The notes under the pieces are model-generated. The model had not been told where the DNA came from. It made no database searches and saw nothing but the letters and a program-made list of their open reading frames with translations. Shown here piece after piece: positions 24,699 through 61,481 of a DNA stretch of 64,000 bases. A program made the translations under genes and the position numbers. Position 1 is the first letter of the stretch, and each line of letters starts with the position of its first letter. Source of the stretch: Klebsiella phage iPHaGe-KPN-11i; sequence record OR637327.1. The stretch is one strand, 5' to 3'.

Positions 24699-25372
24699 GG
24701 TTTCCTATATTTGCAGTTGTCGAAATGAAACCTCACCATATTTCCTTTGCTGTTACTTTCTAACCCGCAATATGGACATTTGATGATTGGCTGATTTTTA
24801 ATAGCCTCACTAAGTTTCTTTCTTTTTTCGATTGATGGAGAAGGTAACTTTTTACCCAGAGTAGGAGGTGTTTGTCTCTTCCGTGACTCAGACATTTTCT
24901 GTTTCGTCTCCTGAGTATGTTTATATCCTTTCTTCGATTCAGACATTTTCTGTTTCGTTTCCTGAGTATGCGTTTTCCCTTTACGTCCTTCAGCTATGCG
25001 TTTTCTTCGTTGTTCTGTACAAGGCTTTCCGTATAATGGATGTAATTTCCCAGAAAACAATATACTTCTTTCATTGGCTACCCGTTTTTTGGCTAACTCA
25101 TATATTCGAGAAGTAGGGACAACGCCTTTCGCGCTACTTGATCCACGCCCACACATCATAGCAACAGCAAACCACATCTTACCACCATGTATACGAGCGA
25201 GTAAAAGATGCGCAACGAAATGTTCTCTCGCTGTCAAATACACCATATTATCAAAATCATCACTACCGCCCATAGATTTAGGAATGATGTGATGATGTTC
25301 CTTATATCCGTCTTTAAGCGGAGTTTTCCTCCGCTTATCTATAAGAGCTTTATATATCCTATCGTAATTCAT
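24695..25372 (-). CDS. free-standing HNH homing endonuclease with tandem NUMOD3 DNA-binding repeats
   Basis: It has the HNH core (EHHHIIPKSMGG...FDNMVYLTAREH) and two near-identical repeats (KTHTQETKQKMSESKKG / KHTQETKQKMSESRKR). It is inserted between gene 6 and the gene-5 region, and its stop overlaps the gp6 start. Confidence 0.85.
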   Translation of the reverse strand: MNYDRIYKALIDKRRKTPLKDGYKEHHHIIPKSMGGSDDFDNMVYLTAREHFVAHLLLARIHGGKMWFAVAMMCGRGSSSAKGVVPTSRIYELAKKRVANERSILFSGKLHPLYGKPCTEQRRKRIAEGRKGKTHTQETKQKMSESKKGYKHTQETKQKMSESRKRQTPPTLGKKLPSPSIEKRKKLSEAIKNQPIIKCPYCGLESNSKGNMVRFHFDNCKYRKP

Positions 25373-25395
25373 TATTACCCCTCGTTATCGGGTAT

Positions 25396-27483
25396 TTAGT
25401 ATTGAACCATAGGGACGCAAACACTAATTGAACCGAATGTGATCGCGAGTCCGATTAATGACAATAATTTGTTTACGTATTGAGTTACCTTACTTAGAGC
25501 AAGCGTACAAATCTGGTTATAAATCACCTTGCATGTGTCCTTAAACGAGCGGGAACTGTCAACAAAGTTTTTATATAGCGATTGTGCGCCCGTCAGCGCG
25601 TTCTCATACGTTTTTAACAGGTCATCGAATGCAACCCCACAGTAACCTAAGAACTGGTTAATCTGAGCCATTACAGGCAGTTTCTTGAGTTCATCCATTG
25701 CCATGCTGTAGGTGTCTTTCATCCCATTTTGCAGATTAGCAATCTGTGCTTTGATTCCCTCATATGCGGCCTTAGTCGCATTCACAGCAGCGTTAGCGGC
25801 ATCAAGTGCAGCCTGATAAGCAGCAGTCGTTGCTTCCTTTACAGGTTCCCACATCCAGTTTAGGTACTGATCGAATTTACGTTTAATCGAATCCCTTTCC
25901 TGTGTCTGTGCTTTCAGGGTTTTGAATAATTCTTGTCCCTGATCATACAGTGCGGAGATCTGCGCATAGGATGCGTCAATGAACGCTTTCACTTTCGCTT
26001 GTGCTTGCTGATACAGATCCATTGCTGTAAACCCTGGGAAGTTACCGCCCAGAATCACATCAAGAGGTTTAATCTGTTTCATGATGTTACGGATAGCCAG
26101 CACCGCAGACCAAAGCGGGTTTGGTGTTTCTGGAGGCATTGACCAGATCTGCATCATGCGCCCGTACAAATCTACCAAAGCAACGCAACCGTTTTGGAAC
26201 ATAGTCAAACACCAGTCAAATAACGCGCTACAAGCGTCTACAAGGTCGCGAGCGCCAGCCTTGACATATTCAACGGCGTAGTTGTAAGAACTGCCTATAG
26301 CCCCGTATATTGCGTTTATGACGCTTTCATACGTCTGTGCGCCGGAATCAATCAGAGCCTGGAAAGAATCTTTCAGGGATTGAACCGAACTATCACCAAA
26401 CACCAGATCGTAAATGTTGATCGCAACACCCATGATCGCAACAGTCGGGAGGAAATTCTTGATCAAATCCCACGCCCCGCCCACGATGTTAAACGCAGAG
26501 CTAATGATCTGTCGGAATACCTTCATTGCGGTTTGCCATGCTTGCTGTGACAATGCAAGAGCACCCGCTGTGATTTCTTCCATCCCGATCGAAAGCCCGT
26601 CAAACATCGTCGCAATGCCCTTACCGTTCTTAATCGTACCCGTCAGCATATCAAAAGCCAGCTTGAACGTTTTACGAGTCTCGTTCCACGCAGACAGCAT
26701 AGCATCACTGATATTTGTATACGGGAACCCTACGGTCGCCGGAATACAGCCCAATCCAGAACGAGCAGAAAATAATCTGGCTTCACTCGGTAGCGCCCCA
26801 TACGTTGACGGGAGAGCAGGAGGAACCGGAGGAATGCTGGTATCTGCGTTCGTGTTTACTGACATCCCTGTATATTTGCACTGGTGCGCGGGGGATTCGT
26901 CGTGTTTCATGTACGCAATACGATTACCATTCCAGTAATAATCAATGCTGGTAAACGCGCCTGTAGTCTGATTGTATACCTGTCGGATTCGCTGATCGCA
27001 ACGGGGACCAGAAGTCAGCAAATAACCACCGGAGTTTTCCACCTTGTACATCGCGAGTTCGCCAGGGTTCTTGAACAGATTCGCTTTTGACAGATCCGCC
27101 CCATACCAGTCATTACCCGCGAGCTTAGTAGCCCCGATAGATTCGATATAGGCATCAATATCCGCTTGAGTGGCGAAATAATAACCAATCTTCGTAACCA
27201 AAATGTCAGTAGAAACTCCAGGGCTTCCATCTGGATTTGTGGGTACGTTTGGAGAGTTCACCACCGGAAGCGGATCGCTTTTCTGCCCGAAAGGGGAACT
27301 CATATACAGGTGAGTTCCGATCGGGATGATTTCGGTCGCCCATTCTACCCCAACAGCGGGGTAATTTTCTGTGTGTCCCTGCCAGATAACGCGTCGGTAA
27401 TATCCAGCGGGGATCTCAGCATCGCAAGGATGCTGAAAATTTTGCATAATCCCATCAATGATGGTTTCATAATCCATGATCAT
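25396..27483 (-). CDS. 695-aa protein of unknown function in the gp5.4 (spike-tip) position; helical C-terminal half with hydrophobic/TM-like helices
   Basis: It starts 3 nt after the gene-5 stop (ATGATCATGA overlap). I recognise no T4 homologue, and it has no PAAR-like G/A-rich repeats. The C-terminal ~450 aa is A/Q/L-rich and predicted alpha-helical, with hydrophobic stretches (PTVAIMGVAINIYDLVF, LLSLIGLAITFGSISVCVPMV). Confidence 0.75.
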   Translation of the reverse strand: MIMDYETIIDGIMQNFQHPCDAEIPAGYYRRVIWQGHTENYPAVGVEWATEIIPIGTHLYMSSPFGQKSDPLPVVNSPNVPTNPDGSPGVSTDILVTKIGYYFATQADIDAYIESIGATKLAGNDWYGADLSKANLFKNPGELAMYKVENSGGYLLTSGPRCDQRIRQVYNQTTGAFTSIDYYWNGNRIAYMKHDESPAHQCKYTGMSVNTNADTSIPPVPPALPSTYGALPSEARLFSARSGLGCIPATVGFPYTNISDAMLSAWNETRKTFKLAFDMLTGTIKNGKGIATMFDGLSIGMEEITAGALALSQQAWQTAMKVFRQIISSAFNIVGGAWDLIKNFLPTVAIMGVAINIYDLVFGDSSVQSLKDSFQALIDSGAQTYESVINAIYGAIGSSYNYAVEYVKAGARDLVDACSALFDWCLTMFQNGCVALVDLYGRMMQIWSMPPETPNPLWSAVLAIRNIMKQIKPLDVILGGNFPGFTAMDLYQQAQAKVKAFIDASYAQISALYDQGQELFKTLKAQTQERDSIKRKFDQYLNWMWEPVKEATTAAYQAALDAANAAVNATKAAYEGIKAQIANLQNGMKDTYSMAMDELKKLPVMAQINQFLGYCGVAFDDLLKTYENALTGAQSLYKNFVDSSRSFKDTCKVIYNQICTLALSKVTQYVNKLLSLIGLAITFGSISVCVPMVQY

Positions 27484-36333: not shown

Positions 36334-36575
36334 CTTCTACAGCTATTCAACAACAAACCATTGATCATGATGCTGAATTCGCACAACTGATCAAAGAACA
36401 TAACGCTTTTGCGGCTTCTCGCGTCAATGAAGAAAGCGAACAGACCCGCCGATCCCTCTGGGTTGCCATTTACCGCGAAGTGTTCAGCGAGAAATCCGCT
36501 AACAAACACACTCAGGCAGTTGATGCAGCAGATAAAGCGCTGGCAGCATACGATCGTAAGTTCGGAGCACAGTAA
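36330..36575 (+). CDS. hypothetical protein
   Basis: 81-aa ORF with an ATGA overlap. Confidence 0.55.
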   Translation: MTSTAIQQQTIDHDAEFAQLIKEHNAFAASRVNEESEQTRRSLWVAIYREVFSEKSANKHTQAVDAADKALAAYDRKFGAQ

Positions 36576-36988
36576 TGGAACGGTCTGCTGGTATTCTCTT
36601 CCTGAATAACGGCAGCGTTTTAATGGGCCACGCAACCGAAACGCCTCATTGGGACATCCCAAAGGGGCATATCGAAAAAGGCGAAGAACCTATTCACGCT
36701 GCGATCCGTGAGTGCTTCGAAGAAACCGGAGTTCTTGTTGAACCGCACGAACTGGAAAGCCTCGGAAGACTGGATTATACCAGTAAAAAAGAGCTTTACT
36801 TATTCGTGTATAAAGGCAATAATTACCCCGAAGCCGATAAATGCTTCTGTGCGTCAACGTTCGTGAAGAACGGGCGAACCATCACAGAAATGGACGGTTT
36901 CAAATATGTTCCGTATAGCCAGATCCGCGATCATGCGCGTAAGACTATGGGACAACTTCTATCTAAACTTGTGGGATATACATCATGA
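36575..36988 (+). CDS. Nudix hydrolase
   Basis: Complete Nudix box GHIEKGEEPIHAAIRECFEETGV (G-x5-E-x7-REUxEExGU). Confidence 0.85.
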   Translation: MERSAGILFLNNGSVLMGHATETPHWDIPKGHIEKGEEPIHAAIRECFEETGVLVEPHELESLGRLDYTSKKELYLFVYKGNNYPEADKCFCASTFVKNGRTITEMDGFKYVPYSQIRDHARKTMGQLLSKLVGYTS

Positions 36989-39676: not shown

Positions 39677-40263
39677 AAGTAACAAGTGAAAAACTTGAAG
39701 AAATTGAAAAATCAGCCCGTTCGATTTCTTTTATGATGGGTAGTAAGTGGACTCTCGTTGAAAATATGAGCATCCAGGGAAATCAGGAATATGGTTTCAG
39801 GGGCAAAGAGTATAAACGCGCGTTCTCATATGGTGTTCCATATGGCGACAGCCCTACACAGATTAAAAGCTGGGAAGAGGGTCTCGGAAAATATCTGGAA
39901 ACCGTAGATCCGCAAACGGTTCTGGATCTGGTTAGCGATCTGTCACTCGCGCTTCGAGACAAGCAAAAAGCAGAATCAGAAGCCGCACACTGGAAAGCAA
40001 ATCATGAATGTGAAGTATCCCGCGCCCGTGTCCTCAAAGAGCGTCCTGATATGCCGCTGGAGCGCGTCAACGCATACAACCGTATGGTTGAGTTAGAAGA
40101 GGAAAACAAAGCCTTAAAACAGCGTATAGCGAGCCTGGAGGATGTCAATCAAACCCGCATGATGTTGCAGATGATTCAGGGTATGGTGATTGATACCCAA
40201 AACATGAACCGCGAACAACTGCGCTACTGGCAAACACATTTCCGCAATCCTAACGGGTGGTAA
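39673..40263 (+). CDS. hypothetical coiled-coil protein
   Basis: MKVTSEKLEEIEK..., with a GGAG SD. The table ORF starts at 39661. Confidence 0.55.
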   Translation: MKVTSEKLEEIEKSARSISFMMGSKWTLVENMSIQGNQEYGFRGKEYKRAFSYGVPYGDSPTQIKSWEEGLGKYLETVDPQTVLDLVSDLSLALRDKQKAESEAAHWKANHECEVSRARVLKERPDMPLERVNAYNRMVELEEENKALKQRIASLEDVNQTRMMLQMIQGMVIDTQNMNREQLRYWQTHFRNPNGW

Positions 40264-40264
40264 T

Positions 40265-40513
40265 ATGTTCGGACGAAAACGAGAATGTAAACATGTTGCT
40301 ACCGGATGGATGCGGGGAACTCCTTACGCCTGGATGCATCATTCCGTAACCGATGGGATCGGGCGTATACATGGCGATATGTATGCAACATGCGACAAGT
40401 GCGGGGAGAAGTTTTTGATGTGTAAGATACACGTTGACCACGCGATCCGTGAGCTGGCAAAACATCCAATCACCCGCGCCGAAATCCTTCGAATCCTCGA
40501 AGAAACAAAATAG
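40265..40513 (+). CDS. hypothetical protein
   Basis: 82-aa ORF. Confidence 0.5.
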   Translation: MFGRKRECKHVATGWMRGTPYAWMHHSVTDGIGRIHGDMYATCDKCGEKFLMCKIHVDHAIRELAKHPITRAEILRILEETK

Positions 40514-51649: not shown

Positions 51650-52157
51650 CAAGGAGAAAGAAACCGATTACACTCTTTCTCTTCTACGGGAATCTTTCTC
51701 GTATAATAAAGATACGGGTATCTTTACTTGTATAAACAAGAAAGCAAAACGATATTTTGGGAAACCTGCCGGAACGTTACATAACAGTGGGTATATCCGA
51801 TTAGGCATTCGTGTAGATGGAAAGCCAGTATTATATCTTGCTCAACGTGTTGCGTGGGCTTTTGTTACTGGAAGTTGGCCTGAAAATATGATTGACCATA
51901 AAGATACGATTAAACAAAACAACGCTTTTGATAATCTACGAGAGGCTACACGTTCAATCAATGCGTATAATTATCGACGGATAAGCAACGCAAATGCTTC
52001 TGGATATAGGGGTGTTCATGTTGATTCTCGTGGAAATCGTGTACGATATGGTGCATATTATGGGAAAACGAGATTAGGTACTTTTGACAGTGCCGAAGAA
52101 GCACACGAAGCATATATGAAATATGTTAAATCTATTCATGAGGTTGTGATTGAATGA
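51633..52157 (+). CDS. HNH-AP2 homing endonuclease (copy 2)
   Basis: YLAQRVAWAFVTGSWPENMIDHKDTIKQNNAFDNL (HNH_3) plus GYRGVHVDSRGNRVRYGAYYGKTRLGTFDSAEEAHEAY (AP2). The table start at 51630 is a GTG. Confidence 0.8.
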   Translation: MKMIINKEKETDYTLSLLRESFSYNKDTGIFTCINKKAKRYFGKPAGTLHNSGYIRLGIRVDGKPVLYLAQRVAWAFVTGSWPENMIDHKDTIKQNNAFDNLREATRSINAYNYRRISNANASGYRGVHVDSRGNRVRYGAYYGKTRLGTFDSAEEAHEAYMKYVKSIHEVVIE

Positions 52158-54556: not shown

Positions 54557-54584
54557 TTGACAAGCGAAAAAGTGATGATAGAAT
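54557..54584 (+). promoter_or_regulatory. sigma70 early promoter TTGACA-N16-TGaTAGAAT
   Basis: TTGACAAGCGAAAAAGTGATGATAGAAT; coordinates approximate. Confidence 0.6.
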
Positions 54585-54610: not shown

Positions 54611-55537
54611 ATGGAAATAATGATGAACTTAAACACTATCGTAAACAACCCGAAGAAAACCACACTGATCGCTCTGGGCGTAATCGCCGCTCTGTGGCTG
54701 GTTCCGAACTCGTACACTATCGTTCAGGATGGTACGGTAAAAACTCAAACCTTCATGGGTAAAGTTTCACCGAAGCCTGTTCTGCCTGGTTTCCACCTGG
54801 TAAATCCACTGGCTGATTTCGAGGTGTTCAACACCAAAGACATCGCAATGAAGTTCGACAAGTTGCAGGTTCCGTCCCAGGATAAATTCAAATCCACTGT
54901 GGATATGACCGTGATGTTACAGTTCGATGGTAGCAAAGCCCCGATCAACCGTATCAATGCGGGTAGTCAGGATCAGGCGCTGGATAAATATGTGACTGAA
55001 AAACTTCTGTCAACTGTCCGTGAGTTCGGTAAATCTGTACCGAAAGCACAGGATCTGTATAATGCAGAAGTTCAAAGCCAGCTACAGATCGCGATTCAGC
55101 AGGAAGTAGAAGAGTATGCCCGTCCTTACGGTTACACCGTGAAACAGGTATTCTTGCAGGATATCGACCTGCCGGAAGCGATCAAGAAGCAGGTTGAAAA
55201 CACGAAAATTCGTGAAGAACAGGTGAACGCAGAAAAAGCAGAACTTGCGCGTAAAGAGCAAATCGCTCAACAGGCGGTTGTTCAGGCAGTAGCCGACAAA
55301 GAAGCCCGTAGCAACGCTGCACAAGCTAACGAACGTGATGCTGATGCCCGTCTGTATGCGGCTAAGAAAGAAGCCGAAGCAAACGCCATTCTGCAACGCA
55401 CAATCACCCCAGAAATGATCCGCTGGAAAGAACTTGATGTTCAGCAGACCATCGCGGAAAAATATCAGGGCGGTGTACCTCAAACTGTCATGGGTTCTGA
55501 TTACGCTGGTAAAGTGATTTTCGATTCTCGTAAATAA
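54611..55537 (+). CDS. SPFH / Band-7 (stomatin-prohibitin-HflK/C-like) membrane protein
   Basis: It has an N-terminal TM (LIALGVIAALWLV), an SPFH core with an ..FDS.. C-terminus, and an A/E/Q-rich coiled coil (EEQVNAEKAELARKEQIAQQAVVQ...). The start is 54611, or 54620-54623. Confidence 0.7.
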   Translation: MEIMMNLNTIVNNPKKTTLIALGVIAALWLVPNSYTIVQDGTVKTQTFMGKVSPKPVLPGFHLVNPLADFEVFNTKDIAMKFDKLQVPSQDKFKSTVDMTVMLQFDGSKAPINRINAGSQDQALDKYVTEKLLSTVREFGKSVPKAQDLYNAEVQSQLQIAIQQEVEEYARPYGYTVKQVFLQDIDLPEAIKKQVENTKIREEQVNAEKAELARKEQIAQQAVVQAVADKEARSNAAQANERDADARLYAAKKEAEANAILQRTITPEMIRWKELDVQQTIAEKYQGGVPQTVMGSDYAGKVIFDSRK

Positions 55538-55543
55538 GGGTTT

Positions 55544-55570
55544 AAAGCCCCCAGAGCGGGGGCTTTCTCC
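55544..55570 (+). terminator. intrinsic terminator AAAGCCCCC-AGAGC-GGGGGCTTTCTCC
   Basis: A GC hairpin plus a U-rich tail. Confidence 0.6.
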
Positions 55571-55586
55571 GAACGAGAATACTACA

Positions 55587-55685
55587 ATGAACATAAAACA
55601 GATCATCCTTACTATCTTCATTTCGCTATTCTTCGGCTTTATTGGCGGTTTTCTTGGTGTATTGGTGATTGCGTCTGTTTTATGA
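55587..55685 (+). CDS. possible 32-aa hydrophobic peptide
   Basis: MNIKQIILTIFISLFFGFIGGFLGVLVIASVL, with a weak SD. Confidence 0.3.
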   Translation: MNIKQIILTIFISLFFGFIGGFLGVLVIASVL

Positions 55686-55710
55686 TTAACCTTTAAACGT
55701 GGAGCACGTT

Positions 55711-56766
55711 ATGAAACAATTTGATAAAGCTGTCGTAATTGGCAGATTCCAACCCTTCCATAATGGTCATGCAGCAATGGTGCGTAAAGCACTCGGAGAA
55801 GCAAAGATCGTTTACATCCTTCTGGGTTCAGCATATGCTTACCCTAACGTTTTAAACCCGCTGACGGCGCGTGAGCGTCAAACCATGATCTTCTCATGGC
55901 TTAATGCTAACTTCCCGATCGAAGATGTTGTTCGTGTTCAGTTTGAGAACATTCCAGATTATCTTTACAACGAAGAGAAATGGAAAACCTCTGTTCGTAC
56001 TGCTATCAGGGAAACCAAAGGCGACAAAATCGCTATCTACGGTTACGAAAAAGATGCAGGTTCATACTGGCTTAAAGCGTTCGGATGGACACACGTACCA
56101 GTTCCACCTGTCCAGATTAACGGCAAGGATCTATCAGCAACCGATCTTCGTCCGATTATCTTTAACCATAAAAACGGGTGGGATAAGCAACTGTTGCGCT
56201 TTGTTCCTCAAACAACAGTCAATTATATTGACAAATGGATGATGGAAGACACGTTCTGGCGTTTATTCTACGAATACGAGAAATGGGAGAGCGAATTGGA
56301 GAAATTCAAAAACTACCCATACCCCGACGCGCTGAACTGCTGCACGGGTGATAGCGTGGTTGTGTGTAACAATCACCTGCTAGTAATTCGTCGTAAGTTC
56401 GCCCCAGGTAAAGACGCGTTAGCCCTTCCCGGCGGACACAAAAACGCAAATGAAACGTTCCTGGATTGTGCGATCCGTGAACTGCTCGAAGAGGTGCGGA
56501 TCAAAGTTCCTGAAAAGGTTATCCGTGGTTCAATCCGCAATTCGATGTTGTTCGATCATCCGAAGCGTTCCGTACACTTCTCAAAACCGACTGTGGCGCA
56601 GTACATCAAGTTAGAGCCTAACAATGATGGAAGTCTGCCCCGTATTATGGGCGGTTCTGACGATGCGTTAGAGGCGTTCTGGATGCCCTTACATGAGGTC
56701 GTGCAACGACAAGGGGAATTCTTCGATGACCACTATCAAATCGTTGTAGCTTTCACGGGACTCTGA
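55711..56766 (+). CDS. bifunctional nicotinamide-mononucleotide adenylyltransferase / Nudix hydrolase (NatV/NadM-Nudix-like)
   Basis: An N-terminal HxGH nucleotidyltransferase motif (VIGRFQPFHNGHAAMV) and a C-terminal Nudix box (GGHKNANETFLDCAIRELLEEVRI). The table start at 55699 is a GTG; the ATG is at 55711. Confidence 0.8.
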   Translation: MKQFDKAVVIGRFQPFHNGHAAMVRKALGEAKIVYILLGSAYAYPNVLNPLTARERQTMIFSWLNANFPIEDVVRVQFENIPDYLYNEEKWKTSVRTAIRETKGDKIAIYGYEKDAGSYWLKAFGWTHVPVPPVQINGKDLSATDLRPIIFNHKNGWDKQLLRFVPQTTVNYIDKWMMEDTFWRLFYEYEKWESELEKFKNYPYPDALNCCTGDSVVVCNNHLLVIRRKFAPGKDALALPGGHKNANETFLDCAIRELLEEVRIKVPEKVIRGSIRNSMLFDHPKRSVHFSKPTVAQYIKLEPNNDGSLPRIMGGSDDALEAFWMPLHEVVQRQGEFFDDHYQIVVAFTGL

Positions 56767-56777
56767 TAAAAGATTAA

Positions 56778-56818
56778 AAAAGCCCTTGCGTTCGCGTGAG
56801 GGCTTTTGTATTATATAC
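56778..56818 (+). promoter_or_regulatory. PeSL-like cassette F (hairpin AGCCCTTGCGTTCGCGTGAGGGCT; -35 TTGCGT; -10 TATTAT)
   Basis: AAAAAAGCCCTTGCGTTCGCGTGAGGGCTTTTGTATTATATACACATACC. Confidence 0.55.
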
Positions 56819-57868: not shown

Positions 57869-58116
57869 TTCACACAATTAGCGTTATTATGGGTGATGTC
57901 GTAAACATCAATGGACACGATTACTACGTAGCGGAAATCAATACAAAGGGTAATCGTGAGATCTTGGAACTGGACATTGTAAGGCCGTCCGAAGGGCAAT
58001 CCCTTACAATCGAAGTGGTTCATAACACGAACACAGGGGAAGACGTAGTGAAGCCAGTTCTGGCCCGTCTTCCGGTGTTCTACTGTGAAAAGTCAAAACG
58101 TTGGAAAATGAAATGA
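57865..58116 (+). CDS. hypothetical protein
   Basis: 83-aa ORF. Confidence 0.55.
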   Translation: MIHTISVIMGDVVNINGHDYYVAEINTKGNREILELDIVRPSEGQSLTIEVVHNTNTGEDVVKPVLARLPVFYCEKSKRWKMK

Positions 58117-58508
58117 ATCCGAAAGATTTAACTGATGTGAAAGTGGGTGATACCCTTTACGATCCTGGCGAAAGGTTATACAATACCCGTAAAACAGCAA
58201 ACCCTCGCGAATTTCACGTTCTAAAGGTTGCGCGTCAATATCTGTATGCATCCACTGATAAAGACGCTGATTTGAAAAGCTGGAACATCGAGAAAGTCGA
58301 TCGTAAGACTGGATTGACTTCTGGTAGTGGCGGGGGCTGGGGCGGATTTTATATGTATCGCAGCGAAGCGGTATACAAAGAAATCCAGTATCGTGCTGAA
58401 CTGAGTGAAAAGATCCGAAAAGAGTTCGGTTCTCACGCTGTTGTTGTTCCTGAAATCACTACCGCTGAACTGCGCGGTATCGCAAAAACCCTGGGGGTTA
58501 AATTTTGA
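58113..58508 (+). CDS. hypothetical protein
   Basis: MNPKDLTDVKVG.. The table start at 58101 is a TTG. Confidence 0.5.
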   Translation: MNPKDLTDVKVGDTLYDPGERLYNTRKTANPREFHVLKVARQYLYASTDKDADLKSWNIEKVDRKTGLTSGSGGGWGGFYMYRSEAVYKEIQYRAELSEKIRKEFGSHAVVVPEITTAELRGIAKTLGVKF

Positions 58509-58516
58509 AAACTGTA

Positions 58517-59491
58517 ATGGAAACCGTGTTTGGTTCTCACCTGTATGGACTGAACACACCGACAAGCGATAAAGACTATAAAGGGATCTTTCTCCCGCAC
58601 CCGCGCGATATTCTCCTGGGGAAAGCCCCAAAGACTATCGACACCAGCACGGGCGATAAAAGCTCTAAAAACACCGTAGACGACGTTGATCGTCAGTTGT
58701 ATAGTCTGACTAAGTTTATCAGCCTTGCGTGTGATGGTGATACCGTAGCGCTAGATATGCTTCACGCTTCGGATGACAAGCTGATCGCTAACTCTGAAAT
58801 CTGGCAATATATCCGCGCTAACCGCTGGCGTTTTTACACCACTGAACTAACTGGCCTGTTCGGTTATGTTCGTAAGCAAGCCGCGAAATATGGCGTGAAG
58901 GGTTCCCGACTGGCTGCACTGCGCGAAGTGTACGATGTGTTGCAAAAAACCGACAACTCGCACTATGATGAAAATGCTACGTCGCTGGTCAATACAAAAG
59001 TCAGTGACATTGTGGATAAACTACCAACCAATGAATTCTGTCGTGCTATCCTGCACTATAGCGAAAAGGGCGGTATGCAGAACTTCTATGAAGTGCTGGG
59101 GCGTAAATTCCAGTATACGATCACCATAGCGGAAATGAAAAAGTCAGTGTATAAACTCTGGGATGAATACGGAGAACGCGCACGACAAGCAGAAGCCAAC
59201 AACGGGATCGACTGGAAAGCATTAAGTCACGCGTTGCGCGGTGGTATGCAGTTGATCCAGATTTACAAAGATGGTGATATCGTTTATCCTCTGCCTGATA
59301 GCGCATTCCTGAAACTGGTTAAATCTGGCGGCGTACCGTTCACAACCGTACAGGAAAAGCTGGAAGAAGTCATGGGTGAAGTCGAACGCCTTGCAGCGAT
59401 TTCAACATATCCGAAAGAAGTTGATCGCGAATTCTGGAACGATTTCATCGAACGCGTATACCGTGATCATGTTGTGGGGTATTACAAATGA
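58517..59491 (+). CDS. Pol-beta-superfamily nucleotidyltransferase (PF10127 'RNA-repair-associated NTase'-like)
   Basis: METVFGSHLYGLNTPTSDKDYKGIF gives the G-S..x9..D-x-D NTase signature at the extreme N-terminus. The table start at 58505 is a TTG. Confidence 0.6.
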   Translation: METVFGSHLYGLNTPTSDKDYKGIFLPHPRDILLGKAPKTIDTSTGDKSSKNTVDDVDRQLYSLTKFISLACDGDTVALDMLHASDDKLIANSEIWQYIRANRWRFYTTELTGLFGYVRKQAAKYGVKGSRLAALREVYDVLQKTDNSHYDENATSLVNTKVSDIVDKLPTNEFCRAILHYSEKGGMQNFYEVLGRKFQYTITIAEMKKSVYKLWDEYGERARQAEANNGIDWKALSHALRGGMQLIQIYKDGDIVYPLPDSAFLKLVKSGGVPFTTVQEKLEEVMGEVERLAAISTYPKEVDREFWNDFIERVYRDHVVGYYK

Positions 59492-59730: not shown

Positions 59731-59990
59731 TGACTGATGTTATTTTGAAAGTTAAAGATGTTGTACTGGGCGATACCAAAAACCCAGACGCGGTTACACT
59801 GGAACAGGCTGTTGTTCAGATCATGCGCGATAGCCTCCGCCTGGAAGTTACTGAACGCACCGAAAGCAATTACACGGGCGGAATTGATGGTCGCCAGTTG
59901 TACGAAGATAACAAACACGTTAATGTAACCCTATGGGCGGACATTGACGAAAACTCATACAAAATTGACGAGATTGATTTTGACGTATGA
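59730..59990 (+). CDS. hypothetical protein
   Basis: MTDVILKVKD.. The table start at 59721 is a GTG. Confidence 0.5.
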   Translation: MTDVILKVKDVVLGDTKNPDAVTLEQAVVQIMRDSLRLEVTERTESNYTGGIDGRQLYEDNKHVNVTLWADIDENSYKIDEIDFDV

Positions 59991-60910
59991 AAATAATTGA
60001 CCTCTGTGCTGGTGTGGGCGGGGTTCGATTAGGATTTGATAAGGCATTCGGCGGTGTCGAATGCCTTTTAACGTCTGAAATCGACAAGTTCGCACAGCAA
60101 ACATATATCGAAAACTGGGGCGATGATAACCTACAGGGTGATCTATTCGCCATTGATGAAAACAAAGTGCCGGATCATGATATCCTGCTGGCGGGGTTCC
60201 CGTGTCAGGCGTTCAGTAAAGCCGGATTGAAACTGGGCTTTGACGATGTGCGCGGTACGGTGTTCTTTGAAATCCTCCGCATTATACGCGCTAAAAAGCC
60301 CCGTGTACTGTTCTTTGAGAACGTGCCTGAACTGCTAACCCATGACAAGGGGAAGACGTTTAAAACGATTTACGGGCTTCTGGAGGCCGAAGGATATAAC
60401 GTATTCTATCAACGCCTGAACACAAAGGATTTCGGACTACCCCAAAGACGGGAACGCGTGTTTATTGTCTGCTTCCTGGATGATGTATTCTTTTCGTTTC
60501 CGGTTCCCCCGCGTACCCCTACACGCGTAGGCGACATCCTCGAAGATGCTGATGATTCATTCACCCTCTCAGATAACGCATGGAAAGGCTTTAGAGAGCG
60601 TAAGGAACGAAATAAGGCAAACGGTAAGGGTTTCGGTTATCAGGCCGTCACAAGCGATTCTGCGCACACTGGGACTATCACTGCAAATTACTATAAAGAT
60701 GGTGTTCAATGTCTGGTATTGCAGGAAGGAAAGAACCCCCGAAGACTTACTCCCCGTGAGTGTTTTCGTTTGCAGGGTTTCCCAGATTCGTTTATTATCA
60801 ACAAAAGCAAGATGCAAGCGTATAAACAAGCAGGTAATTCTGTTTCAATACCAGTCATCGAGGCTATAGCAAAACAAATCAAGAAGGTGTTATGTCACAC
60901 AACGGACTAA
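59987..60910 (+). CDS. dcm: DNA (cytosine-5)-methyltransferase
   Basis: Motif I IDLCAGVGGVRLGF, motif IV GFPCQAFS (catalytic Cys), motif VI ENV, motif VIII QRRERVF and motif X AGNSVSIPV. Confidence 0.92.
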   Translation: MKIIDLCAGVGGVRLGFDKAFGGVECLLTSEIDKFAQQTYIENWGDDNLQGDLFAIDENKVPDHDILLAGFPCQAFSKAGLKLGFDDVRGTVFFEILRIIRAKKPRVLFFENVPELLTHDKGKTFKTIYGLLEAEGYNVFYQRLNTKDFGLPQRRERVFIVCFLDDVFFSFPVPPRTPTRVGDILEDADDSFTLSDNAWKGFRERKERNKANGKGFGYQAVTSDSAHTGTITANYYKDGVQCLVLQEGKNPRRLTPRECFRLQGFPDSFIINKSKMQAYKQAGNSVSIPVIEAIAKQIKKVLCHTTD

Positions 60911-61428
60911 GAACAATCGAAGAAGAACAGAAAGGAATTGACGAATTCCTTAAAACTGTTTCTGTTGATATACAAACGGGGACAATTATACGAACGTCAC
61001 ACAAACGTTCTGACTTGATCGGAAAGGAAATAGGTTCGAAGATTAAAGGAGGATATACCCGCGTTTATTTCAAAAGCAAAGGATATCTACGTCATCGAAT
61101 CATCTACTACGTTGCAACCGGAAAACTGCCTGATGTGATTGATCACAAAAATGGTGTTGAGGCTGGCGACGGGATTTATAACTTGCGTGAAGCGGATCAA
61201 TCCCGAAACTGTCAGAACCGGACTAAACGAAGAGTAGCAACCAGTCGATTCAAGGGTGTATGTGTACGTGATCAACCTACTGGAATACGTTACATTGCAC
61301 AGATAAAGATTGACGGCAAGGTTAAACATATCGGTTCCTATCGTGACGAATACGAGGCTGCAAAAGCATACGATCGGGAAGCGATAAAACATTTTGGTAA
61401 ATTTGCAAAATTAAACATTGCATACTGA
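60892..61428 (+). CDS. HNH-AP2 homing endonuclease (copy 3), overlapping the 3' end of dcm
   Basis: YLRHRIIYYVATGKLPDVIDHKNGVEAGDGIYNL (HNH_3) plus FKGVCVRDQPTGIRYIAQIKIDGKVKHIGSYRDEYEAAKAYD (AP2), with a strong AAGAAGGTG SD. Confidence 0.8.
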   Translation: MSHNGLRTIEEEQKGIDEFLKTVSVDIQTGTIIRTSHKRSDLIGKEIGSKIKGGYTRVYFKSKGYLRHRIIYYVATGKLPDVIDHKNGVEAGDGIYNLREADQSRNCQNRTKRRVATSRFKGVCVRDQPTGIRYIAQIKIDGKVKHIGSYRDEYEAAKAYDREAIKHFGKFAKLNIAY

Positions 61429-61481
61429 CCAGGATAGTGATACATTATCTTTACCGAAACGAAACTGAAAAGGAACATACC

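Follow-up and report, generated by a model that had tools for sequence, protein, structure and literature searches.

Among the phage pathways for NAD+ resynthesis described so far, the closest to the locus reported here is that of KVP40. According to a citing paper, it was first described as an NAD+ salvage pathway composed of NadV and NatV (Lee, Li & Miller 2017); papers citing the same work also credit KVP40 NatV with two reported activities, those of NMN adenylyltransferase and ADP-ribose pyrophosphatase. The pair of KVP40 Nampt (NadV) and Nmnat, designated NARP2, overcomes NAD+-depleting defences (Osterman et al. 2024, bioRxiv 10.1101/2024.02.11.579819), rescuing phages from Thoeris, DSR, and SIR2-HerA (Osterman et al. 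2024). It also cancels the aRES defence in E. coli, which NARP1 does not (aRES preprint 2026). Nmnat is also encoded by 94% of the phages possessing a KVP40-type Nampt (Osterman et al. 2024, 10.1101/2024.02.11.579819), and the genes JN882287_00240 (GAP161), HM134276_00238 (RB16), and GU295964_00238 (KP15) are catalogued in Table S2 of the same paper as “Nmnat-associated” (Osterman et al. 2024).

Two other pathways resemble NARP2 in part. The end result of NARP1 (Adps + Namat), i.e., the resynthesis of NAD+ against its depletion, is the same, and Namat and Nampt are distant homologs. However, NARP1 operates by ADPR-PP chemistry, requires the Prs-like Adps, and lacks NMNAT, whereas Nampt of the lineage considered here is of the KVP40 type (its identity is ca. 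50% to the vibriophage, KVP40-type Nampt vs. 25-31% to Namat-type proteins encoded by NARP1 phages). NARP3, comprising a PnuC-like transporter and a NadR-like RNK-NMNAT (Yan et al. 2026, PMC13464706), likewise ends with the adenylation of NMN by an NMNAT domain and is also present in phages of Enterobacteriaceae, but in it a ribosylnicotinamide kinase, and not Nudix, is the fusion partner of NMNAT, and imported nicotinamide riboside serves as the starting compound. Neither PnuC nor NadR is annotated in GAP161, a relative of the source phage.

The window, i.e., the whole 64-kb stretch of DNA analysed, belongs to a Pseudotevenvirus, a T4-like representative of Straboviridae of the RB43/RB16/GAP161 type. 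Bar a few small indels, it is colinear with GAP161 68,969-133,180 read on the reverse strand, and its DNA is matched by 175-178 records. The megablast search with the natV locus yielded 175 matching phage records, the hosts being Klebsiella, Enterobacter, Cronobacter, Citrobacter, and Escherichia, and NatV proteins with at least 60% identity were found in 176 phage records. The closest relative is Klebsiella phage phi1_146002 (PP889458.1), with 98.6% nucleotide identity and a NatV which is 100% identical at the amino acid level. For the most variable 16 kb of the window, the best match among the phage records reached 98.0% identity over 97% of the query. As a separate observation, five stretches of the window (24699-25369, 39677-40507, 43974-44545, 51650-52153, and 60889-61432) gave no megablast match to GAP161; these are insertions or replacements relative to GAP161, located at plasticity spots typical of T4-like phages.

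The initial annotation placed at 55711-56766 a NatV-like gene for a bifunctional NMNAT/Nudix enzyme, and this assignment is borne out by Pfam, NCBIfam, PHROG, and PDB, all of which match far beyond chance. The gene resides in the open reading frame 55699-56766 (plus strand) from the ORF list of the window. Its ATG at 55711 is also the annotated start of the 1056-nt orthologue GAP161_126 in GAP161, which was annotated already in 2012 as [quoted passage not shown], and the start annotated for natV of the Slopekvirus phiKp_1 falls at the equivalent position. The features of the gene and its product are as follows:

55711-56766 (stop codon included), plus strand: natV-like coding sequence for a 351-aa bifunctional NMN adenylyltransferase/Nudix (ADP-ribose pyrophosphatase-type) protein, assigned from the ORF list, Pfam, NCBIfam, PHROG, and PDB
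55701-55704, plus strand: Shine-Dalgarno sequence GGAG, read from the sequence, with a 6-nt spacer to the natV ATG
55711-56277, plus strand: predicted N-terminal NadM-type NMN adenylyltransferase domain, aa 1-189 (NCBIfam NF010365, nicotinate-nicotinamide nucleotide adenylyltransferase, aligned over aa 1-189; Pfam CTP_transf_like; 1f9a/1ej2)
55759-55770, plus strand: HxGH nucleotidyltransferase motif, H17-N-G-H20 within GRFQPFHNGH; H17, G19, and H20 invariant in an eight-sequence alignment
56134-56151, plus strand: second NMNAT signature, ISSTxxR-like, S142-A-T-D-L-R147; T144 and R147 invariant in the same alignment
56353-56718, plus strand: C-terminal Nudix domain, aa 215-336 (Pfam PF00293, NUDIX, E 5.6e-14, 52.7 bits vs. 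a cutoff of 21.1)
56434-56502, plus strand: Nudix box, G242-x5-E248-x7-R256-E257-L258-x-E260-E261-x-R263-I264; G242, E248, R256, E257, L258, E260, and E261 invariant in the same alignment

The alignment comprised NatV of the window, its homologs from the KVP40-type vibriophages VH7D and nt-1, Aeromonas phage 44RR2.8t, Ralstonia phage RSL1, and Sinorhizobium phage phiM19, and the proteins of the PDB entries 2qjo and 2qjt. The check for a loss of the HxGH and Nudix catalytic residues found all of them intact and invariant in the eight sequences; the invariant positions also include G11-R-F13 and G241 next to G242. The counterpart of the stretch S142-A-T-D-L-R147 is SSTAIR in 2qjo and NATEFR in 2qjt, and the Arg occupying the position of the canonical Gly in the Nudix box is likewise present in Synechocystis slr0787.

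Over its entire length, NatV is matched by PDB 2qjo (“Bifunctional NMN adenylyltransferase/Nudix hydrolase” of Synechocystis; E 2.2e-53, aa 4-349 vs. 7-338) and by 2qjt, NadM-Nudix of Francisella (E 1.2e-45, NatV aa 3-346), and full-length homology to these two crystal structures settles the predicted fold of the protein. End-to-end alignments were also obtained with the PRK05379 models of NCBIfam for bifunctional nicotinamide-nucleotide adenylyltransferase/Nudix proteins (E 1.6e-73) and with PHROG 395 (E 2.6e-96). At the level of sequence, the product of natV is thus confirmed as a bifunctional NMN adenylyltransferase and Nudix hydrolase of the NadM/NatV type, and it would be expected to display the corresponding enzymatic activities in the source phage. 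The similarity to the bacterial NadM-Nudix proteins (slr0787/2qjo and Francisella tularensis NadM, 2qjt/2r5w) includes full-length colinearity, as well as the HxGH, SxTxxR, and Nudix-box residues, but the identity amounts only to 33-36%, and the setting is that of a phage, not of cellular NAD+ homeostasis. The curated equivalog cutoffs of the PRK05379 bacterial models were all missed (the best score being 247.9 bits vs. 397). Therefore, NatV represents a diverged phage branch and is filed under the broader NadM-Nudix architecture and PHROG 395 and not under any single bacterial equivalog.

The comparison with NatV/NARP2 of KVP40 reveals the same two-domain architecture of NMNAT and Nudix in a gene hosted, in both cases, by T4-like Straboviridae. 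The identity of the window NatV to the KVP40-type homologs of VH7D and nt-1 is ca. 38-41% over more than 98% of the length. At the same time, the window NatV is diverged in sequence, and the host range is enterobacterial.

A different name is attached to the gene in many records: both RefSeq and the pharokka annotations of relatives, as well as PHROG 395, label it as a cytidyltransferase, and the name of the Pfam family, CTP_transf_like (aa 9-63, E 6.6e-8, above the gathering score), reads similarly, which would imply a CTP-dependent enzyme unrelated to NAD+. Yet cytidyltransferase is a label of the superfamily, whereas the specific best matches are invariably NMN adenylyltransferases, i.e., NadM-Nudix, the NCBIfam models, and the archaeal NMNAT (the structures 1f9a/1ej2 match NatV aa 7-67 in the PDB search), so a CTP-dependent function has a negligible probability. 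The main value of the present analysis is in the correct annotation, as the gene in related phages is often mislabelled as “cytidyltransferase” or “hypothetical protein”.

In its reading of the gene as one half of the NadV+NatV module, the initial annotation had stated that Nampt (NadV) is absent from the window. This holds true: the tblastn search of the 64-kb window with phage Nampt found none, the best match having an E of only 0.017 and being a 112-aa fragment of low identity. The partner was found in relatives of the source phage. In GAP161, it is GAP161_237 (149,632-151,065; 477 aa), annotated as “putative nicotinate phosphoribosyltransferase”. The Pfam domains of this protein are NAMPT_N and NAPRTase, its score with NCBIfam PRK09198 is 460 bits at a cutoff of 405, and each of its top PDB matches is either a nicotinamide phosphoribosyltransferase or a PBEF-related protein (E 1e-105 to 1e-85); judging from these matches, GAP161_237 is a true protein of the Nampt family. 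In PP889458.1, the gene (25,168-26,601) is annotated as “nicotinamide phosphoribosyl transferase”, and its product is 98.5% identical to that of GAP161. The synteny of the Nampt locus is common to both genomes: rnlB ... nampt - hyp - dam - nrdC - gp49 - nrdD. In all sequenced relatives, the gene occupies this setting, ca. 73 kb from natV. By colinearity, the locus is predicted ca. 16.5 kb beyond the left edge of the window and ca. 73 kb from natV, so Nampt is probably carried by the source phage itself, as it is by its relatives.

Among phage records, 179 contain Nampt with at least 60% identity (the identity being 92.9% for RB43). Since the 176 records with NatV and the 179 records with Nampt match the 175-178 records of the lineage, the two genes appear to be effectively fixed together. 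The distance between them has a parallel in the KVP40-type phages, as no nadV was found within 12 kb on either side of natV in vibriophage nt-1 (vs. ca. 73 kb in GAP161). By contrast, the genes for NatV and Nampt lie side by side or with a single gene between them in RSL1 and phiM19, and this proximity supports their functional link. The view of natV as half of the NadV+NatV module is therefore sustained by the partner present in the relatives and by the “Nmnat-associated” status of the Nampt genes catalogued for the lineage.

The initial annotation had left two options for the missing partner: its location elsewhere or a variant pathway. The former stands, with Nampt found in the relatives and placed outside of the window by colinearity; the latter is unneeded. 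In its most explicit form, a variant pathway would mean that the source phage is devoid of Nampt, and a solo NatV re-adenylates NMN made by the host (e.g., from the turnover of NAD+-dependent LigA or from the host salvage) and clears ADP-ribose. The absence of Nampt from the 64-kb window agrees with this scenario, but the predicted Nampt locus falls outside the window, and GAP161, RB43, the closest relative, and ca. 179 records of the lineage all possess the gene. Moreover, according to Iyer et al. (2022), NadV accompanies NadM in every NadM phage, no example lacking NadV having been found by these authors. A solo NatV is highly improbable on these grounds, and this candidate was rejected in view of Nampt in all close relatives.

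The domain architecture, catalytic motifs, homology, and the partner gene in relatives make it very likely that NatV and the unlinked phage Nampt constitute the known NAD+ salvage of the NARP2/KVP40 type, blunting NAD+-depleting defences. In such a pathway, Nampt/NadV would convert Nam and PRPP into NMN, and the N-terminal domain of NatV, a nucleotidyltransferase of the HIGH family, would combine NMN with ATP to form NAD+. The Nudix domain, in turn, would split ADP-ribose (possibly also NAD(H)) into AMP and ribose-5-phosphate, and the latter could be returned to PRPP by the host Prs. A source of PRPP in the phage itself was sought in GAP161, where no Prs/Adps-like gene is annotated and ten large unannotated proteins lack a Prs-type Pfam match (only DnaJ, VWA, and Zeta-toxin-type domains were detected in them); hence, PRPP is presumed to come from the host. 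Within the same scope, the lack of an Adps partner sets the pathway apart from NARP1. The rebuilding or over-production of NAD+ in the course of infection would be expected to blunt Thoeris I, DSR1/2, SIR2-HerA, and aRES, and natV would presumably be expressed early. The anti-defence role in the Pseudotevenvirus lineage is suggested by analogy with the experiments on KVP40 NARP2. Experimental work on NatV/NadV of Pseudotevenvirus or Slopekvirus was not found in the literature searched; both the gene and the NARP2 status of this phage group are already published, and no new biology is implied. For practice, it is of importance that phages of Klebsiella, Enterobacter, and Cronobacter are candidates for therapy, and the presence of NARP2 helps to predict their performance on hosts with Thoeris, DSR, SIR2-HerA, or aRES.

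The survey of the large unannotated GAP161 proteins also drew attention to GAP161_224, situated outside the window (positions 42743-43573 of locus L004, minus strand): this 277-aa “hypothetical protein” possesses a P-loop kinase domain of the Zeta-toxin type (E 5e-8), and its counterpart in PP889458.1 is labelled “head morphogenesis protein”.

Resistance to defence systems might not be the main benefit of the module. NARP2 yields excess NAD+ even in defence-free cells (Osterman et al. 2024; aRES preprint 2026); hence, anti-defence need not be the sole or the main function under selection. One can therefore conceive of NadV+NatV as mainly an auxiliary metabolic module boosting NAD+ for the redox reactions of nucleotide synthesis and for NAD+-consuming enzymes of the phage or host regardless of defence, with anti-defence as a side benefit. 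Such a role does not exclude the former one, and it is in line with the designation of the pathway as NAD+ salvage in the original KVP40 work, as the citing literature relates it, with the retention of both genes in ca. 176-179 lineage records, and with the position of natV. The latter is core-like and conserved (tk - rI - SPFH - natV - nrdC.11) in Pseudotevenvirus and Slopekvirus, and is not that of a variable anti-defence islet; in full, the block shared by the two groups reads tk - rI - rI.-1 (DUF5856) - SPFH/Band 7 - natV - small ORFs - ProQ-C-like - nrdC.11 (RlaP) - Dcm methylase. On the other hand, phages are measurably rescued by KVP40 NARP2 from Thoeris, DSR, SIR2-HerA, and aRES, and NARP2 is described as metabolically costly or toxic (Osterman et al. 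2024; Yan et al. 2026, PMC13464706; aRES preprint 2026), so that a strong and specific advantage would be needed to offset this burden. On balance, a predominantly metabolic role is a possibility to be entertained only tentatively. The surroundings of natV in the window include the following features:

54557-54584, plus strand: putative sigma70-like promoter TTGACA-16-TAGAAT with TG (11/12), the best one upstream, located before the SPFH gene; a consensus match only
54611-55537, plus strand: SPFH/Band 7 domain protein, 308 aa, directly upstream of natV; position kept in Pseudotevenvirus and Slopekvirus
55544-55566, plus strand: hairpin AAAGCCCCC-AGAGC-GGGGGCTTT 3' of the SPFH gene; it lacks a T-run and was not scored as a terminator
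55587-55685, plus strand: hydrophobic ORF of 32 aa (MNIKQIILTIFISLFFGFIGGFLGVLVIASVL) between the SPFH gene and natV, unannotated in the GAP161 and phiKp_1 records
56778-56807, plus strand: GC-rich hairpin with a 13 bp stem, 12 nt past the natV stop, putatively terminator-like in function; the same hairpin occurs in phiKp_1
58101-58508, plus strand: protein with a phage ProQ C-terminal-like domain (E 1e-19), downstream of natV
58505-59491, plus strand: NrdC.11/RlaP-type nucleotidyltransferase, downstream of natV
59987-60910, plus strand: C-5 cytosine DNA methylase, full-length (E 3e-92), downstream of natV

The Nudix half of NatV deserves separate consideration in view of another enzyme encoded in the window:

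36575-36988, plus strand: NudE-like Nudix hydrolase, 137 aa, orthologous to GAP161_171 “NudE” (Pfam NUDIX, E 7.5e-16)

The phage thus appears to possess two ADPR-type Nudix enzymes, the domain of NatV and the NudE-like protein. The latter is the homolog of T4 NudE (e.1), which is reported to be active on ADP-ribose, FAD, and Ap3A, as summarised by Iyer et al. (2022). Like T4 NudE, NatV would be an ADP-ribose-active Nudix enzyme, but the NudE homolog in the window is a stand-alone protein of another clade, without an NMNAT domain. Two hydrolases of the ADPR type might have diverged in role and, together with the strict conservation of the Nudix catalytic residues, this could mean that the Nudix half is the key function of NatV, acting on gcADPR-type immune signals or NAD-capped RNA, and that its NMNAT is secondary. 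However, 2qjo and 2qjt have their ADPR-pyrophosphatase domains in colinear alignment with this half, the NMNAT motifs are conserved equally, and the strict co-occurrence with Nampt points to NAD+ synthesis as the function under selection, so the priority of the Nudix half seems improbable. Another version, in which Nudix of NatV in enterobacterial T4-like phages would also degrade ADPR-derived immune signals or non-canonical products of NAD+ cleavage, e.g., ADPR-1''-phosphate, is given little credence as well. If true, it would render NatV a dual counter-defence enzyme combining the removal of the signal or product with the rebuilding of NAD+, and could help explain why a costly module is fixed across Pseudotevenvirus/Slopekvirus alongside a second Nudix of the NudE type.

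As for the transcription of natV as part of the NARP2-type salvage, the putative promoter at 54557-54584 possibly drives the transcription of the SPFH gene, the small ORF, and natV, although sigma70-like sites are no more numerous in this region than expected from shuffling. The hairpin at 55544-55566 would delimit the natV intergenic region at its 5' end. Just past this upstream hairpin, GAP161 (positions 27175-27351 of locus L002) and phiKp_1 (positions 2816-2991 of locus L012) harbour a near-consensus TTGACT/TTGACA-16-TATAAT, whose -10 overlaps the ATG of the small ORF. By comparison with these phages, the window (55560-55592) has lost the -35 owing to a short deletion and has TACAAT as the -10. 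Hence, the local promoter of natV in the window looks degraded, and the gene may depend on read-through from the promoter at 54557-54584.

The 25 nt immediately 5' of the natV ATG (55686-55710, TTAACCTTTAAACGTGGAGCACGTT) are 100% identical to those of the diverged Slopekvirus phiKp_1, unlike the adjacent coding sequence, where many synonymous changes separate the two phages; this stretch may represent a conserved translation-initiation or regulatory element. In the 32-aa ORF, 11 codons differ from phiKp_1 by synonymous changes only and 5 carry conservative replacements, a pattern of purifying selection suggesting that the ORF encodes a real small membrane peptide.
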